DNA of 64,000 nucleotides from Parcubacteria group bacterium. Its GTDB lineage: Bacteria; Patescibacteriota; Minisyncoccia; Phycocordibacterales; UBA2135. Positions 15,409 to 58,808 of this stretch are shown piece by piece. Numbering within the stretch: the stretch's first letter is position 1; every line of letters begins with the position of its first letter. The position numbers and the translations under genes are program-made. Below the pieces are notes generated by a model. That model was not told the origin of the DNA. It made no database searches and saw only the letters and a program-made list of their open reading frames with translations. The stretch is taken from contig JACQLQ010000001.1 in assembly GCA_016204045.1 (NCBI GenBank), positions 321,792-385,791 on the forward strand, in the 5' to 3' direction.

Positions 15409-16668
15409 TTATTTTTTAGCTTCTTTTTGTGCTTCGGCGTATGAGAGTGTCATGCGCTGTGCCTTGGGATCGAAGAGTGTAATCTTCACCGGGTACGCTT
15501 TTCCTAGCTCGAGCGCTTCGCGGAGCTTTGCTTCATCTCCGAACTCCGAGATGTGGACCAAGCCGGCAACTCCTTCCTCAATAGAGATGAGGGCGCCGTG
15601 TTTGTTGTACTTAATTACAACACCGGTAACCATGCTTCCTGTTTTGTATTTCTTTTCTGCATCCACCCATGGGTTCTCCTTGAGTGCCTTAATGGAGAGC
15701 GAAATCTTGCCATCCTTAATCTCTATGACCTGTACCTTCACTTTCTCACCGACTTTGGCAAAGGTGCGTGGGTTCTCAACGAGTCCCCAGTCCATCTCCG
15801 AGATGTGGACCAACCCCTCGAGGCCGTCCTCGATTTTAACAAAGAGGCCGAAGTCGACGATGCCAGTAATCTCTCCCTCAAGAATGTCGCCAACTTTATA
15901 TCGCTCTACTAATTCTGTTTTTTCCTTTTCCTCTAGTCCCTTTTCGCTAAAGATAAGTTTTCCCTCTTTGGGGTCAACAGAAAGAATGCAGACAGCAAGT
16001 GGTTTGCCCACAAACTTCTGGAGTTCGGAAAGGATTTCGTCTTTGTTGCCGTCGAGCACACGAGGATAGTGCTCTGCCTTGAGTTGAGAAGCGGGGAGGA
16101 ATCCTTGTATGCCCTGCCATTCGAGAATAAGACCGCCCTTGTTTGCGTCTTTGACGCTGAGTTCAAAGACACTCTTGCCACGCATGGCGTCTTCTGCCTC
16201 GCTCCAGATGAGCGCTTGCCGAGCTTCTTTGAGTGACAGCTCTATATAACCGTCTTCGTTCTCTGCTTCAACTACTTTTGCCGTGATGATATCACCAATG
16301 TTTATTTTCTTGATGATCTCGCGCGCGTTTAGGAATTCCCTTCCGTAGATAATACCTGTGCCGAAGGGGACGAGATCAATATAAAGGGCGCCCTTCTCAA
16401 GGGTTAGTACACGTCCTTCGACGAGGTCACCGTCTTCTGGGTGCTTGGGTGCCGCCTCGAGAATAGAGGTCATCGGATGCATTGCTGCATTTACCTCTTT
16501 TACGGGTTGCTCCAGCTCGTCCGACATGGGTCGCGCTTTCTTTGTACGAGATACTGCCGCGGTCTTTTTGATTTTAGTAGTTGGCTCTACGGCAACTTCT
16601 TTAGATTCATCCGTCTCGGCCTCTCCTTTGCGAGACGGCTCAGCTTTCGCTTTTTTAAGTAAAAACAT
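15409..16668 (-). CDS. rpsA: 30S ribosomal protein S1 (four S1 domains, Lys-rich N-terminal extension)
   Basis: Repeated S1 OB-fold motifs (GDIITAKVV..., GDILEGEITGIVDFGLFVKI, VKVQVIEIKDGKISLS). The N-terminal roughly 50 aa may be an extension, or the true start may be internal. Confidence 0.85.
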   Translation of the reverse strand: MFLLKKAKAEPSRKGEAETDESKEVAVEPTTKIKKTAAVSRTKKARPMSDELEQPVKEVNAAMHPMTSILEAAPKHPEDGDLVEGRVLTLEKGALYIDLVPFGTGIIYGREFLNAREIIKKINIGDIITAKVVEAENEDGYIELSLKEARQALIWSEAEDAMRGKSVFELSVKDANKGGLILEWQGIQGFLPASQLKAEHYPRVLDGNKDEILSELQKFVGKPLAVCILSVDPKEGKLIFSEKGLEEKEKTELVERYKVGDILEGEITGIVDFGLFVKIEDGLEGLVHISEMDWGLVENPRTFAKVGEKVKVQVIEIKDGKISLSIKALKENPWVDAEKKYKTGSMVTGVVIKYNKHGALISIEEGVAGLVHISEFGDEAKLREALELGKAYPVKITLFDPKAQRMTLSYAEAQKEAKK

Positions 16669-16831
16669 GTGTATGGTGCTTTGGGGCTCGCATGGTTTTC
16701 ATACATTGCAACCGATCCTTTGAAAACCGACCATGTCGAGGTTACCCCCTCGGCGTTATTAATAATGTATAAGCAAGAAGTCTATATGAGTTAGTCAAAT
16801 TTTGCAATCTCCCGCATTGCGGTCTCCCATA

Positions 16832-17316
16832 CAAACAAACAGACCACCTAAAAGGCGGTCCGAACTTCTGGGAACTAAAACTTTATGAAAGAAAGAACGT
16901 GGGTGGAAGCGGCACCTGTTGCCGCCCCCACCCCTTGTCTCTCGAGGTTCGTGGGAGAACCTCAAGAGCGGGTACGCGGGTGTGCCCACGACGGAGAAGG
17001 CCGTCCACACCCTTGCCCCTTCAGCCCCGTCCGTGGCCGAACCACGCGACGGGACTGTTGTTGAAGGGAGAAGTCATTGCCCTAACCTTGAGCTGCTGCG
17101 TCGCGGCGTACGCAACTGACTTCCGACACATGGCCGCGCTGAGGCTGGCGTGCGGTGGTTACTCGTCGTGCGGCTCGCCGGCGATGGCGAGTGTCGCGTC
17201 GGCGGCGAAGCCGGCGGCGGTCGTAAGGATCGTTTCGGTCGCAGTCGTCGTCGGATCGTGCTTGTTCACGGCGTGTCTCCTCGGCGGGTGGCGTGCGGTC
17301 GGTCGATCGTCTAGCG
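16832..17316 (-). other. candidate independent transcript: small ORF plus roughly 300-nt GC-rich structured RNA
   Basis: Bounded by a consensus-like promoter (17324-17351) and a hairpin plus T-run (gaccgcc-tttta-ggtggtc-tgtttgtttgt, about 16832-16862). Contains long perfect hairpins (gtgggtggaagcggcacctgttgccgcccccacc, gaggttcgtgggagaacctc). The plus strand is GT-rich and A-poor. Confidence 0.4.
17159..17269 (-). CDS. 36-aa Thr/Ala-rich small ORF (MNKHDPTTTATETILTTAAGFAADATLAIAGEPHDE), GTG start
   Basis: GAGGAGA Shine-Dalgarno 6 nt upstream of GTG. TAA stop. Ten codons lie upstream of the GTG before an in-frame stop. Not in the ORF track (under 60 aa). Confidence 0.4.
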   Translation of the reverse strand: MNKHDPTTTATETILTTAAGFAADATLAIAGEPHDE

Positions 17317-17323
17317 TCTATAC

Positions 17324-17351
17324 ATTATACACCCTACAGTTTTTTTGTCAA
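17324..17351 (-). promoter_or_regulatory. sigma70-like promoter TTGACA-N16-TATAAT driving the sORF transcript
   Basis: Minus strand reads cTTGACAaaaaaactgtagggtgTATAATg. Confidence 0.55.
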
Positions 17352-17421
17352 GACCCCCTCAAAAGGGCCCAAGAAATGAAGCTATTTTGAACCTCTTGGA
17401 GTTTTTGCTAGAATTGTAAGC

Positions 17422-18084
17422 ATGATCATTACCTACTACGGTCTACAATTCTTCAAACTTCAAGTGGGCGACCTTGTTATTGCCGTGAACCCGATTGCGA
17501 AGGGATCAAAAGAGAAGACCGCGCGCTTTGGAGCAAATATTGCGCTTATCACTACCAACCATCCCGATATGAACGGGGCGGAGCAAGTAACCCATGGCGA
17601 CAAGAAGCCGTTTGTTGCGAATGGCCCAGGTGAATATGAAGTTGAGGGGGTTCCAATACGTGGGTTTCTTACCAAAACAAAATACGGTTCGGCAGCCTCA
17701 CCACAGGGAGGCAAGGGAGAGCGCCCCAACACCATCTATTTCTTTTCCATAGATTCGCTCGATGTATGTTTCTTGGGAGCATTAGATGATGCGACGATTC
17801 CTCCCGATGTATATGAAAAGATCTATAACGTCGATATTCTCTTTGTTCCTGTGGGGGGAGGGGAAGTCTTGACCCCTTCTGCCGCCTATAAATTGGCACT
17901 TTCGTTTGAACCGAAACTCATCATCCCTATGCATTATGGAGAGGCGTCTTCGAAGGAGCTCAAAACATTTCTCGATGAAGCAGGAGCAGAGAATGCGCGT
18001 CCTGAAGAGAAGCTTACGCTGAAGAAAAAAGACGTTGAAAGTAAAACAGGAGAGGTCGTAGTCTTGAAGCCCCTTACTTCCTAG
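17422..18084 (+). CDS. MBL-fold metal-dependent hydrolase-like protein (UPF0173-like)
   Basis: MIITYYGLQFFKL...IIPMHYG: beta-lactamase-fold architecture with a degenerate His motif. Confidence 0.65.
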   Translation: MIITYYGLQFFKLQVGDLVIAVNPIAKGSKEKTARFGANIALITTNHPDMNGAEQVTHGDKKPFVANGPGEYEVEGVPIRGFLTKTKYGSAASPQGGKGERPNTIYFFSIDSLDVCFLGALDDATIPPDVYEKIYNVDILFVPVGGGEVLTPSAAYKLALSFEPKLIIPMHYGEASSKELKTFLDEAGAENARPEEKLTLKKKDVESKTGEVVVLKPLTS

Positions 18085-24956: not shown

Positions 24957-25097
24957 GTAAAAGTGCTAAAGAAAAGCTGGTCCCGCCCGGGCCAGCTTTT
25001 CTTTTTGAGATGTATGTGGCGTAACAATAAAAAGGCGTGATTGTAGGGCCCTCAGTTTGCTATCCTTATTGGAGATTTTAGTTGAGAGAGAAGACTG

Positions 25098-26045
25098 ATG
25101 CGTCTCCGTGGGACTGATTTCGGTGATGTATTTGGTGCTTCTGGTGTGCAAGGCTTCTTTGGAGAGGGGTACTGGTTTCATACACCCCTTCGTCCGTTTG
25201 GTCTCGACTTTGAAGGCATGACTCTCGTCTCAAAGACGGCGACACTTGAGGCAAACGTGGGGAACATGCCGCTCACAGAGTTCTATACACCACGAGATCT
25301 CTTTCCTGACTGTATTAAAATACAGCCATGGCGTGGTGCAGCGCTCAATGCCGTCAGGCTGAGTAATCCAGGGCTCAGGGCTCTCCTCGATACTGGTTTG
25401 TGGCAAATGCGAACCGAACCGTTCCTCATTTCATTTATGTCGCTCGCGGATACTCCCGAGAAGCGACTCGACGAGTTTCGTGCCGCAGTGGATATGCTCG
25501 GTCCTGCAAAAGATGATTTCTGCGCACCGTTTGGATTCCAACCCAATCTGTCATGTCCGAACACCGGGCATAAACCGAGCGAACTCATTGGTGAGTCTGC
25601 AAAAGTTCTTGAGGTTGCGGCAAAGCTTGGTGTGCCCGTAGTGCCGAAGTACAGCATTGCGTCAGCCCCAGTAGAAGCCGTTCTCGAACTCAACCAAAAT
25701 CCCAATTGTGATGCAATATGCATCTCGAACACTGTACCGTGGGGATGGCATGGGATCAATTGGGAAGGTGTTTGGGGGAGCAAGAACTCACCCCTCGCAA
25801 AGCTAGGGGGCGGTGGATTCTCGGGGGCGACACTCAAACCCTTTGTGTGTGAGTGGGTGAGCAAGTTGCGTAAGGCTGGCTTTACGAAACCCATTAATGG
25901 CGGTGGCGGCATTTTCTCCCGCAATGATATTTGGGATTATCGCTCTGCTGGCGCTTCGTCTGTTTTCTTGGGCTCTGTCGCCATGCTTCGTCCGTGGCGC
26001 GTACGCGGACTTATCAAAGAAGCCAATCGTCTGGTTTGGGAATAA
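25098..26045 (+). CDS. dihydroorotate dehydrogenase-like flavoprotein (class 1 family)
   Basis: NLSCPNTGHKP matches the class-1 DHODH NLSCPN motif. VSKTATLEANVGN substrate loop. C-terminal GGGGIFS FMN-binding glycine motif. Confidence 0.6.
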   Translation: MRLRGTDFGDVFGASGVQGFFGEGYWFHTPLRPFGLDFEGMTLVSKTATLEANVGNMPLTEFYTPRDLFPDCIKIQPWRGAALNAVRLSNPGLRALLDTGLWQMRTEPFLISFMSLADTPEKRLDEFRAAVDMLGPAKDDFCAPFGFQPNLSCPNTGHKPSELIGESAKVLEVAAKLGVPVVPKYSIASAPVEAVLELNQNPNCDAICISNTVPWGWHGINWEGVWGSKNSPLAKLGGGGFSGATLKPFVCEWVSKLRKAGFTKPINGGGGIFSRNDIWDYRSAGASSVFLGSVAMLRPWRVRGLIKEANRLVWE

Positions 26046-41181: not shown

Positions 41182-41266
41182 GGGCGTGTCGCATAGCGGC
41201 AATTGCACTTGGCTGTAAACCAAGCGGCTTCGGCCTACGGGGGTTCGAGTCCCTCCGCGCCCACCA
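41182..41266 (+). tRNA. tRNA-Tyr(GTA), long variable arm, CCA encoded
   Basis: GGGCGTGTCGCATAGCGGCAATTGCACTTGGCTGTAAACCAAG CGGCTTCGGCCTAC GGGGGTTCGAGTCCCTCCGCGCCCACCA. Confidence 0.9.
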
Positions 41267-41334
41267 AACAACGCGGCTTTGCCGCGTTTTGTATAGAGCG
41301 GAAGCGAAGTGCCTGCGCACTTCGCGTGGGACTC
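41247..41334 (+). repeat. 88-nt direct repeat copy A (tRNA-Tyr 3' half + terminator hairpin + gcgaagtgc/gcacttcgc hairpin)
   Basis: Identical to 41436..41523 except 2 mismatches. Period 189 nt. Confidence 0.8.
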
Positions 41335-41435
41335 GAACCGGCGGAGCCATGCCGAGTCCGCGAGGAGGGCGAGCCGCGTCCAACAGTACTTATGAACCCG
41401 AGCCTGTCGAGGGTGAATTAGTAACTGTGGGATCA

Positions 41436-41523
41436 GAGTCCCTCCGCGCCCACCAAACAACGCGGCTTTGCCGCGTTTTGTGTAGGGCGGAAGCGAAGTG
41501 CCTGCGCACTTCGCGTGGGACTC
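41436..41523 (+). repeat. 88-nt direct repeat copy B (partial tRNA-Tyr 3' end duplicate)
   Basis: gagtccctccgcgcccaccaaacaacgcggctttgccgcgttttgtgtagggcggaagcgaagtgcctgcgcacttcgcgtgggactc. Confidence 0.8.
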
Positions 41524-44100: not shown

Positions 44101-44219
44101 AGATTATTTGTAACTGTACTACACGGGGCTTGCCAAGGCAAAAAGAGTGTTGTTTTCCCATTGCCCTCCCAAGGGTTCCTTGTTATTGTCTTTGCTAGAT
44201 TGGCAATCAGAGGAAAGAA

Positions 44220-44939
44220 ATGAAGGACGCACTTCCTAAGGACAGAACCTTTGTAGCAGTAGATGTCGATGAACTTCGCAAGGCAGAGCCTCTCGTCAAA
44301 ATGCTTGCTCCGCATGTGGGTTGTTTCAAGATCGGTCTGGAGCTCACGACAGCCGTGGGTGGCCCCCAGGCCGTAGAGTTTATCCACTCTCTCGGCGGAC
44401 AAGTCTTTTATGATGGCAAGTTCTGCGACATTCCTAATACGGTAGGCAGAGCAGCCAAAGCAGTTTCGGCGCTAGGAGTGAAGATGTTCAACGTTCATGC
44501 TTCTGCGGGAGTAGAAGCCATGGCTGCAGCAGTAAAAAACAAGGGGAACTCCCTTGTGCTGGCAGTAACGCTTCTCACGTCTCTGAATGAAGATGATATC
44601 AACGTCATCTTCGGTGGGCCAAGCAAGACCAAGGTTCTTCAGCTCGCACGGGATGCAATGCGCGCGGGTTGCGATGGTGTTATCTGTTCACCGCAAGAGC
44701 TCACCTTCCTTCGGAGTCACACGGATTTGCAGGATTTCTCACTCATTACACCTGGTGTTCGTCCTGCCGGCACAAGCAAGCAAGACCAGAAGCGAGTGAT
44801 GACACCGTATGAGGCTATCATGGCAGGTGCAGATGCACTTGTTATCGGCAGACCGATTACTGAAGATAAAGACCCCGTGTCTGCTGCGCAACGTATCGAA
44901 GAAGAAGTAAGGCGTGCGTGCCAGGAGAAGTCGGTATGA
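44220..44939 (+). CDS. pyrF: orotidine 5'-phosphate decarboxylase
   Basis: FVAVDV...FKIGLEL...DGKFCDIPNT motifs. 239 aa. Confidence 0.9.
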   Translation: MKDALPKDRTFVAVDVDELRKAEPLVKMLAPHVGCFKIGLELTTAVGGPQAVEFIHSLGGQVFYDGKFCDIPNTVGRAAKAVSALGVKMFNVHASAGVEAMAAAVKNKGNSLVLAVTLLTSLNEDDINVIFGGPSKTKVLQLARDAMRAGCDGVICSPQELTFLRSHTDLQDFSLITPGVRPAGTSKQDQKRVMTPYEAIMAGADALVIGRPITEDKDPVSAAQRIEEEVRRACQEKSV

Positions 44940-45619
44940 GCGCCGCAAAGGACTTTGTCCGTTACGCCCTCGCTCGGGAAGCAATCAAGATCATTCCCGG
45001 GGGCATGAAGCTCGTCAGTGGGCGTATTTCGCCCTACTACTTCAATTCCGGACCTTTTGACAAAGGAGCGTCTATTCGAGAGCTTGCAAAAGCATGTGCA
45101 GCCATTGCGCAGGATATGCAGACTGATGTTCTCTTTGGTCCGCCAATGAAAGGTATCCCACTTGCTGTTGCGACGGCTTACGAGCTCTACGAGCGTCACG
45201 ACATAAATGTCGGGTACGCTTTCAATCGACCAAAGGCAAAGGATCACGGTGATCAAGGCCTTATCCTGGGCCATCCTCTGAAGGGCAAACGTGTGTGCAT
45301 TATCGATAATGTCATTACGACAGGTGGCACACTCGATGAGACAGCACAACTCGTCCACAACGAAGGCGGTATTCTCGCCGGGGTCATCATTGCATTTGAC
45401 CGCCAAGAGCGGGTTACGGACGGAGCGAAGAGCGCGTCTGCGACTCAAGATTTTGAAGCACGTCACGGCGTTCCCGTCCGTGCTGCTGCGACTTGCGATG
45501 ACCTTATCGCCGTATTGGGAGATATCGCCGAAGGGTTTGGTCCCAACGAAGAAAAGGAGTGGGGGCGAAACGCTCTCGCACTCGTTCTCGAATACAAAAA
45601 GAAATACGGAGCAGTCTAA
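44936..45619 (+). CDS. pyrE: orotate phosphoribosyltransferase
   Basis: PRPP-binding VCIIDNVITTGGT. ATGA start-stop overlap with pyrF. Confidence 0.9.
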   Translation: MSAAKDFVRYALAREAIKIIPGGMKLVSGRISPYYFNSGPFDKGASIRELAKACAAIAQDMQTDVLFGPPMKGIPLAVATAYELYERHDINVGYAFNRPKAKDHGDQGLILGHPLKGKRVCIIDNVITTGGTLDETAQLVHNEGGILAGVIIAFDRQERVTDGAKSASATQDFEARHGVPVRAAATCDDLIAVLGDIAEGFGPNEEKEWGRNALALVLEYKKKYGAV

Positions 45620-56668: not shown

Positions 56669-56682
56669 AGCCTTCGTATCGT

Positions 56683-56714
56683 CACGCCGTCCAGTCCAAC
56701 TGGCGGCTTTTTTA
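56683..56714 (+). terminator. terminator module copy 1 (cacgccgtccagtccaactggcggctttttt)
   Basis: 32-nt identical to 57155..57186. Confidence 0.7.
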
Positions 56715-56832
56715 TTTTCCAATTTTCGAGATCCACTTGACCTATTTTCTTAAAATGGTATAACTGCACCAGTACGAAGTAAACACTCCTTATGGCATGG
56801 GGCCGTTAAGGGTGAAACTTGAGGAGAAGACA

Positions 56833-57144: not shown

Positions 57145-57154
57145 TCATGTGTAT

Positions 57155-57186
57155 CACGCCGTCCAGTCCAACTGGCGGCTTTTTTG
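57155..57186 (+). terminator. terminator module copy 2
   Basis: cacgccgtccagtccaactggcggctttttt. Confidence 0.7.
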
Positions 57187-57214
57187 TTGACATAAAAACC
57201 CTTGCATGTTATGT
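57186..57214 (+). promoter_or_regulatory. putative promoter TTGACA-N17-TATGTT upstream of Nudix gene
   Basis: TTGACAtaaaaacccttgcatgtTATGTT. Confidence 0.35.
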
Positions 57215-58754: not shown

Positions 58755-58764
58755 TATATCGTAT

Positions 58765-58792
58765 GCCGTCCAGCAAAACTGGCGGCTTTTTT
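58765..58792 (+). terminator. terminator module copy 3 (gccgtccagcaaaactggcggctttttt)
   Basis: Same stem as copies 1 and 2, with a variant loop. Confidence 0.65.
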
Positions 58793-58808
58793 ATGCTATA
58801 ATCCACCC

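Follow-up and report, generated by a model that had tools for sequence, protein, structure and literature searches.

What occupies the GC-rich gap between rpsA and the gene for an MBL-fold hydrolase in a Parcubacteria/Paceibacterota (CPR) genome, on which strand is it read, and what kind of product would it yield? This gap of 753 nt is the largest stretch without a credible gene in the window—that is, in the whole 64,000-nt stretch of DNA that was analyzed—and it contains, on the minus strand from about 17351 to about 16835, a promoter, a small ORF, a 3′ half with many hairpins, and two hairpins resembling terminators, together termed the element here (Table 1). An earlier reading made from the letters of the window (the sequence-only reading) had proposed an independent minus-strand transcription unit at this place, with a dual-function small RNA, a leader peptide rich in Thr codons, or an unclassified structured RNA as its possible roles. 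CPR bacteria, or Patescibacteria, are uncultured and have streamlined genomes in which the classical small-RNA machinery is largely absent, and to our knowledge almost nothing has been established about their regulatory or structural RNAs.

The composition of the element sets it apart from its surroundings. Its GC content was measured to be 0.645-0.69 in 200-nt windows, compared with 0.508 for the window as a whole, making it the most pronounced GC island of the window and placing it 17 points above the genome, in agreement with the GC richness reported in the sequence-only reading. That reading had further described the 3′ tail as GT-rich and A-poor; the low A content (0.17) was borne out, but the tail is not GT-rich, with G and C at 0.30 each and T at 0.23. 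The 5′ part, consisting of the leader and the ORF, is rich in C and A and very poor in U, with a U content of 0.08 in this element and 8-10% over this element and the homologue described below. Within the window, neither a second copy nor terminal repeats of the element were found, and a repeat, a mobile element, and the template of a diversity-generating retroelement were rejected on these grounds. A 163-aa ORF annotated as a hypothetical protein runs antisense to the element on the plus strand. Searches of Pfam and NCBIfam with the small ORFs and the plus-strand ORFs, this one included, yielded no match, and the 163-aa frame is not conserved at the homologous locus; having neither a family match nor conservation, it is therefore an annotation artifact and not a gene, consistent with its earlier dismissal as junk.

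Elsewhere in the window, the second-largest apparently non-coding gap (44101-44716, 616 nt) contains no ORF of at least 70 aa and showed no Rfam match. In the region 41182-41523, the 3′ end of tRNA-Tyr and a GC-rich hairpin downstream of it (95 nt in all) are duplicated 189 nt apart, in a manner that looks like the duplication of an attachment site by an integration event. In addition, a terminator-like hairpin, TCACGCCGTCCAGTCCAACTGGCGGCTTTTTT, occurs in three copies (56682-56716, 57154-57188, and 58761-58795), each following one of several consecutive small genes.

A homologue of the element was found in a single other genome, the Parcubacteria MAG JACQLS01 (L003), where it likewise lies between rpsA and the MBL-fold gene and has the same orientation. 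Homologous loci were fetched through the MBL-fold neighbor, 41 of them from species-representative genomes and 66 from metagenomes; when the MBL-fold protein was compared with 5.8 billion proteins, only one genome was found above 60% identity, the L003 protein being 86% identical and the next relatives no more than 60%. The gene order pth, rpsA (minus), MBL (plus), and gyrA is conserved throughout the group, and in most related genomes the rpsA-MBL gap is short, containing only an rpsA promoter and leader and no element. The flanking proteins of the window and L003 are 89-90% identical, whereas the 4-fold degenerate sites agree at only 31-42%. Since the latter sites are saturated, the features still shared within the element have been kept by selection. 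These features include five hairpins in the same order and the same terminal hairpin, with a longer linker in L003, as well as the GC peak itself, which reaches 0.69 in the window and 0.71 in L003 in genomes of 0.51. Judged from this comparison, the element is a genuine, selected RNA gene limited to a narrow Parcubacteria lineage and represents a new family of known general type with two members; its identification as a functional RNA is well supported by the conserved sequence features.

At its 5′ boundary, the element carries a sigma-70-type promoter, TTGACA-16-TATAAT, which is the sole 12/12 match on both strands of the 64 kb, with 11/12 being reached by two sites only. The L003 element has the same 12/12 promoter, and the promoter and start region are identical at 34 of 37 nt. 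In the leader, the blocks ACGATCGAACGACC and CCGAGGA-ACACG are kept in L003, the motif ACGATCGA(C/A)CGACC is common to both genomes, and GAGGAGA is located 6 nt upstream of the GTG start. The leader and ORF together show no excess structure relative to shuffled sequences (z = -0.2 in the window and +0.2 in L003). At the 3′ boundary, the stem of hairpin f was observed to have undergone compensatory changes, reading AGGUGGUC in the window and GGCGGUCU in L003. Each of the signals noticed in the sequence-only reading—promoter, Shine-Dalgarno (SD) motif and 36-aa ORF ending in TAA, and terminal hairpin with a T-run before rpsA—was recovered as described, and the conservation of promoter, SD and ORF, structured tail, and terminator in L003 despite saturated divergence points to a minus-strand unit transcribed independently, with a promoter and intrinsic terminators of its own. 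The predicted transcript would be about 430-480 nt long in the window and 550-600 nt long in L003. One feature expected of a dual-function small RNA, namely the signals of an independent unit (its own promoter and an intrinsic terminator), is present in both genomes.

Downstream of hairpin f, rpsA possesses its own conserved promoter-like box and leader, and in relatives without the element it is driven by a similar proximal promoter. In the region upstream of rpsA (16669-16830 in the window and 3141-3295 in L003), a box reading TTGCAAAAT is kept, as is the block TTATTAATAACGCC..GGGTAAC.TCGA, which includes a small hairpin, and related sequence also occurs in other Paceibacteria leaders. This conserved region may be an S1 autoregulatory leader.

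The ORF in L003 starts with ATG, is preceded by an SD motif, and is equivalent to that in the window in its place, SD spacing, start, and stop. The only motifs shared by the two peptides are K[HR][DE]P and [LI]AIAGE, located N- and C-terminally, respectively, and both in frame, and no significant alignment between the two 36-aa peptides was obtained with BLASTP. Nucleotide differences between the two ORFs are evenly spread over the three codon positions (20/23/19). The GC3-GC2 periodicity peaks on the ORF frame, lying within the top 1.4% of the windows of the element here and above all 322 other windows in L003, and the GC3 of the ORF (0.84 and 0.89 in the two genomes) is far above that of host genes (0.48-0.61). 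The identical block TCGCCATCGCCGGCGA near the end of the ORF is able to form the hairpin CUCGCC-AUCGCC-GGCGAG, and its identity includes third codon positions, suggesting that part of the constraint acts on the nucleotide level—that is, on the RNA. Because an SD-like motif precedes only 5 of the 46 longer genes of the window, the SD constitutes weaker evidence for the ORF than the sequence-only reading had assumed. Furthermore, the chance of a 36-codon open frame at the composition of the element was estimated by us to be about 0.46, and a pair of 71-aa ORFs, equal in length in both elements, reads a conserved block in different frames, showing that equal ORF length alone can be due to chance. 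Overall, translation of the small ORF appears somewhat more likely than not on sequence grounds, and its product is probably a fast-evolving, acidic peptide.

Many genes of the window have a -10-like box a few bases 5′ of the start codon, as in the case of the MBL-fold gene (TAGAAT at 17409-17414 and ATG at 17422), which suggests that leaderless translation is widespread in this genome.

In the 3′ half of the element, the 233 nt at the 3′ end fold far more stably than dinucleotide shuffles (z = -7.0), as does the 3′ domain of L003 (z = -7.3), and the long perfect hairpins previously remarked on are real. The linker preceding them gave z-scores of -0.3 in the window and -4.7 in L003. A covariance model of hairpins c, d, and e and the tail, for which only the window sequence was used, was found to detect L003 at E = 2.5e-6. 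In the alignment of the window and L003 to this model, 72 of 72 cells (100%) are standard pairs, both partners having changed in 16 of the 38 pairs and no pair being broken; in a control with the partners slid by 1-3 columns, 36-51% were paired and 0-2 double-sided changes were seen. With respect to individual helices, both sides have changed in 4 of 7 pairs in the outer stem of hairpin c and 6 of 12 in the stem of hairpin d, all of which are still paired, and in 5 of 14 pairs in hairpin e. Only two genomes being available, this covariation rests on a single pairwise comparison, and the alignment was fitted to the structure model. The comparison of homologous intergenic regions called for in the sequence-only reading, limited as it is to two sequences, thus shows promoter, ORF, and hairpins to be kept, and the helices appear to have been maintained by compensatory substitution on the minus strand, indicative of a structured RNA under selection.

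The choice of strand is also reflected in the folding energies, which were calculated to be -120.6 kcal/mol for the minus strand versus -103.3 kcal/mol for the plus strand in the window, and -139.6 versus -133.5 kcal/mol in L003. The number of G-U pairs is 8 and 7 on the minus strand versus 3 and 3 on the plus strand (window and L003, respectively), and two G-U pairs of hairpin e become A-C mismatches if read on the plus strand. By predicted stability, G-U pairs, promoter, and terminators, the functional strand is the minus strand.

Several unpaired segments of the 3′ domain are also conserved. The 10-nt loop block of hairpin d (in DNA form, TCTCCCACGA) is identical in L003, and the motif CGTTCTTTC(T/A)TTCA follows hairpin e in both genomes. 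In each of the two elements, CGUGGG in the bulge of hairpin c is perfectly complementary to CCCACG in the loop of hairpin d, and the two hairpins could form a 6-bp kissing contact through this bulge and loop; both segments being invariant, the pairing carries no covariation signal.

Table 1. Coordinates of the element, its neighbors, and other features named in the text (positions of the window, except where a locus handle is given).
Feature	Position	Strand	Remarks
rpsA	15409-16668	minus	3′ neighbor of the element, same orientation
MBL-fold hydrolase gene	17422-18084	plus	Other neighbor of the element
Sigma-70-type promoter, TTGACA-16-TATAAT	17324..17351	minus	12/12 match; predicted transcription start about 17317-17319
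5′ leader	17270..17319	minus	Conserved block ACGATCGACCGACC (17310-17297); SD-like GAGGAGA (17282-17276)
36-codon ORF, GTG to TAA	17159..17269	minus	Acidic peptide MNKHDPTTTATETILTTAAGFAADATLAIAGEPHDE; SD-preceded; 36 codons also in L003
Block TCGCCATCGCCGGCGA inside the ORF end	17175..17190	minus	Same 16 nt in L003, also at third codon positions
Variable linker	17069..17158	minus	90 nt here versus 178 nt in L003; poorly alignable
Hairpin b	17016..17068	minus	MFE and centroid folds of both genomes, same position
Hairpin c	16978..17012	minus	Conserved internal bulge CGUGGGC (16990-16984), identical in L003
Hairpin d	16939..16968	minus	Conserved C-rich apical loop region UCUCCCACGA (16958-16949)
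Hairpin e, first terminator-like hairpin	16901..16933	minus	14 bp; terminator scan
Pyrimidine tail	16881..16900	minus	Conserved CGUUCUUUCUUUCA (16899-16886); 13/14 nt identical in L003 (CGTTCTTTCATTCA)
Hairpin f and U-rich run, second terminator	16830..16862	minus	Terminator scan, both genomes
tRNA-Tyr 3′-end duplicate copies	41240-41334 and 41429-41523		95% identity
DHO_dh-like gene	25098-26045		Initiation region 25057-25118, with polypurine tract GAGAGAGAAGA
Other unit at MBL-rpsA site	L021 ~3886-3540	minus	Promoter and terminator
Other unit at MBL-rpsA site	L027 ~3857-3520	minus	Promoter and terminator
Other unit at MBL-rpsA site	L098/L079 ~2460-2100	minus	Promoter and terminator
Other unit at MBL-rpsA site	L004 ~3933-3430	minus	Promoter and terminator
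Other unit at MBL-rpsA site	L026 ~3605-2950	minus	Promoter and terminator
Other unit at MBL-rpsA site	L029 ~3683-3060	minus	Promoter and terminator
Other unit at MBL-rpsA site	L018 ~3250-2600	minus	Promoter and terminator

Searches for known RNA families did not place the element. A scan of the window against Rfam 15 at the gathering threshold returned only 10 tRNAs, all located elsewhere, and for the element region only sub-threshold, chance-level matches were obtained up to E = 10, with the same result for L003 and in either orientation; a scan of 31 related loci returned nothing relevant. The sequence-only reading had found no resemblance to RNase P, tmRNA, or SRP by eye and had raised the prospect of a known RNA in another orientation; the Rfam results for the window and L003 agree with the former and gave no instance of the latter, and, with all parts kept in L003, they favor its suggestion of an unclassified structured RNA, possibly of dual function. 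The one match of any note in the element region was to the NAD+ riboswitch class I (nadA motif, RF03013), with 24.8 bits at 17068-17017, within hairpin b. Assignment to this class was taken to need at least 37.5 bits, the gathering score, together with retention of the CAACA and CUGAA internal-loop nucleotides in homologues; L003 gave no nadA match and its hairpin b lacks CAACA, and the assignment was rejected.

A tRNA or tmRNA was excluded because ARAGORN was negative for the elements of both the window and L003 and neither a T-arm nor acceptor-like ends are present in the sequence, and a tmRNA also because the ORF has an SD and a GTG or ATG start. Intron-containing tRNAs of Patescibacteria are overlooked by standard tools, according to PMC13011429. 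An intron-bearing tRNA, in which tRNA halves would flank a group I intron core, was rejected, as no tRNA was detected by ARAGORN and no Intron_gpI match was found up to E = 10 at this site or in L003. Foreign DNA was rejected in the absence of phage or plasmid similarity. Two covariance models, R1 and R2, searched against about 0.7 Mb of related loci, matched only the window element and L003; a weak model match at 45456-45601 was discarded, since it falls within a gene and has no counterpart of hairpin d. A longer DNA pattern of the element found nothing in viral contigs, and of the four stretches found with a shorter pattern none was confirmed by the covariance model. Searches of the literature turned up no account of an RNA like this.

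The element has been interpreted here as a lineage-restricted dual-function RNA, in which a translated small ORF is combined with a structured regulatory or scaffold 3′ domain in an RNAIII-like layout, a reading to which about an even chance may be given on the sequence features and the analogy. In such an RNA, the strong constitutive promoter would produce an abundant transcript ending at hairpin e or f, the accessible, unstructured 5′ part would allow ribosomes to translate the 36-codon ORF, and the 3′ part, consisting of five stable stem-loops, would serve as a regulatory or scaffold RNA module. The unpaired motifs that would be at work are the C-rich loop UCUCCCACGA, the complementary bulge CGUGGGC, and the pyrimidine tail CGUUCUUUC, and they might pair with purine-rich (SD-like) sites in mRNAs, bind a protein, or stabilize a loop-bulge kissing fold. 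The two intrinsic terminators would insulate rpsA.

Alternatively, the element might be an ordinary mRNA for the acidic 36-aa protein, with 3′ hairpins that merely make up a stabilizing and terminating 3′ UTR. In favor of this, the SD, start, and stop are conserved, the codon-like periodicity does not extend beyond the ORF, structure is lacking in the coding part, and the 3′ part amounts to hairpins simply arranged in a row. However, 250-400 nt of hairpins compensated over saturated divergence in a tightly packed genome exceed the needs of stabilization, the conservation of the loop, bulge, and tail at the sequence level implies roles that depend on their sequence, and the peptide is barely conserved in comparison with the flanking proteins at 89-90% identity, making this explanation unlikely. 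The opposite proposal holds the structured RNA to be entirely non-coding, serving for example as an RNP scaffold or as a sponge for protein or RNA, and the ORF to be a by-product of GC-rich, stop-poor sequence; it gains from the estimated open-frame probability of about 0.46, the unalignable 36-aa peptides, the RNA-level constraint implied by the 16-nt identical block spanning third codon positions, the rarity of SD use in the host genome, and the chance control offered by the equal-length 71-aa ORF pair. This proposal is also rather improbable, given that the SD-like motif, its spacing, and the start codon are kept in both genomes, that the N- and C-terminal peptide motifs remain in frame, and that the GC3-GC2 periodicity peak coincides with the ORF in both elements.

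A role in cis for rpsA has also to be weighed. S1 binds pyrimidine-rich sequence, and the element, being co-oriented with and directly upstream of rpsA in both genomes and containing a pyrimidine-rich, S1-like binding sequence in its tail and two terminator-like hairpins, might be a long 5′ leader or attenuator in which translation of the ORF or binding of S1 to the tail sets read-through of hairpins e and f. Such a role is highly improbable: rpsA has a conserved promoter-like box and leader of its own 3′ of hairpin f, relatives without the element use a similar proximal rpsA promoter, an alternative antiterminator pairing is not evident, autonomous hairpins and a variable linker put 260-400 nt between the ORF stop and the terminators, and the element is absent from this site in most related genomes. 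The Thr-codon-rich leader peptide of the sequence-only reading fared no better, and a Thr-type attenuator was rejected, since the run of regulatory codons is not conserved (8 Thr in the window peptide versus 1 in that of L003) and the variable linker and the autonomous hairpins b-d intervene between the stop and terminators e and f. Finally, the GC content 17 points above the genome, an ORF GC3 far above that of host genes, and the tendency of standard tools to overlook intron-containing tRNAs in Patescibacteria (PMC13011429) might suggest that high-GC DNA was acquired horizontally and is now decaying, or that a known RNA (tmRNA, RNase P, SRP, or intron-bearing tRNA) was missed. This is scarcely probable either, in view of the high GC content and hairpins held in both lineages past saturating divergence, the lack of phage or plasmid similarity, the Rfam searches up to E = 10 that gave only the unconserved nadA-like match, and the ARAGORN result for this site and L003 of no tRNA or tmRNA, along with no T-arm or acceptor-like ends.

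With respect to possible targets of the proposed dual-function RNA, matches to the complement of the loop occur at chance level, and target prediction with the conserved motifs gave nothing credible beyond chance except for a polypurine outlier at a DHO_dh-like gene (Table 1). The start of this gene forms the best predicted duplex with the tail, at -24.7 kcal/mol and z = -4.0 among 70 gene starts; this duplex could be a chance low-complexity pairing.

The MBL-rpsA gap of other Paceibacteria was observed to contain different minus-strand units of 300-650 nt, each with a strong terminator and a promoter close to consensus, and often with a higher GC content than the genome (Table 1). These units do not match Rfam, their similarity to the window element is at chance level, and none is similar to another except in pairs of close relatives. 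In the unit of L026, a hairpin motif is internally repeated, as GGAUCCGGAAAUCCGGACCCUGACA and GGUUCCGCGAAAUCGGAACCCUGACA (~3330-3290 and ~3140-3100, minus strand). The units of L026, L029, and L018 resemble the element in motifs judged by eye but were rejected as its relatives, k-mer sharing being at chance level and BLAST finding nothing. The MBL-rpsA site has the look of a hot spot for small RNA or small-ORF genes that are specific to individual lineages. A bolder and decidedly unlikely proposal is that Paceibacteria have a hypervariable, highly expressed RNA locus fixed between the MBL-fold gene and rpsA, of which the element would be the form found in one lineage, namely a fast-evolving dual-function RNA in which peptide and kissing-loop domain co-evolve, for host interaction or phage defense. 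If true, this would make the element a member of a new class in episymbiotic bacteria, rather than a one-off small RNA. In any case, the element provides a concrete, clonable RNA candidate of 0.45-0.6 kb in a genome that has hardly any DNA to spare, and its promoter, being E. coli-like, makes it usable for studying how such organisms use RNA.

Comparison with known systems places the element among RNAs of a familiar general type. Like tmRNA (ssrA), it would be an abundant-type RNA of 350-450 nt with an internal short frame and many helices; unlike tmRNA, it has no acceptor or T-arm, and its ORF has an SD and a start and no Ala-rich degradation tag at its end. The thr, his, and trp attenuators likewise have a short ORF 5′ of terminator hairpins, and the window copy is Thr-rich, but in the element the regulatory codons are not conserved, no overlapping antiterminator is present, the spacing is long, and the downstream gene, rpsA, has its own promoter. 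Like OLE, GOLLD, ROOL, raiA, and HEARO, the element is an intergenic RNA several hundred nucleotides in length, with high GC content and extensive structure; it differs in that it matches no Rfam model, is a simple row of hairpins rather than a multi-junction fold, and occurs in only two genomes with a probable coding frame. In Staphylococcus aureus RNAIII, C-rich, UCCC-containing loops pair with SD or ribosome-binding regions. The element has no sequence or Rfam relationship to RNAIII-type small RNAs, its host is a CPR bacterium rarely using SD, and its peptide is acidic and not a hydrophobic toxin; in layout, however, it resembles RNAIII and other dual-function small RNAs (SgrS/SgrT and SR1/SR1P) in having its own promoter and terminator, a length of about 0.5 kb, a short ORF near the 5′ end, and a multi-hairpin 3′ domain with a C-rich, UCCC-containing apical loop.
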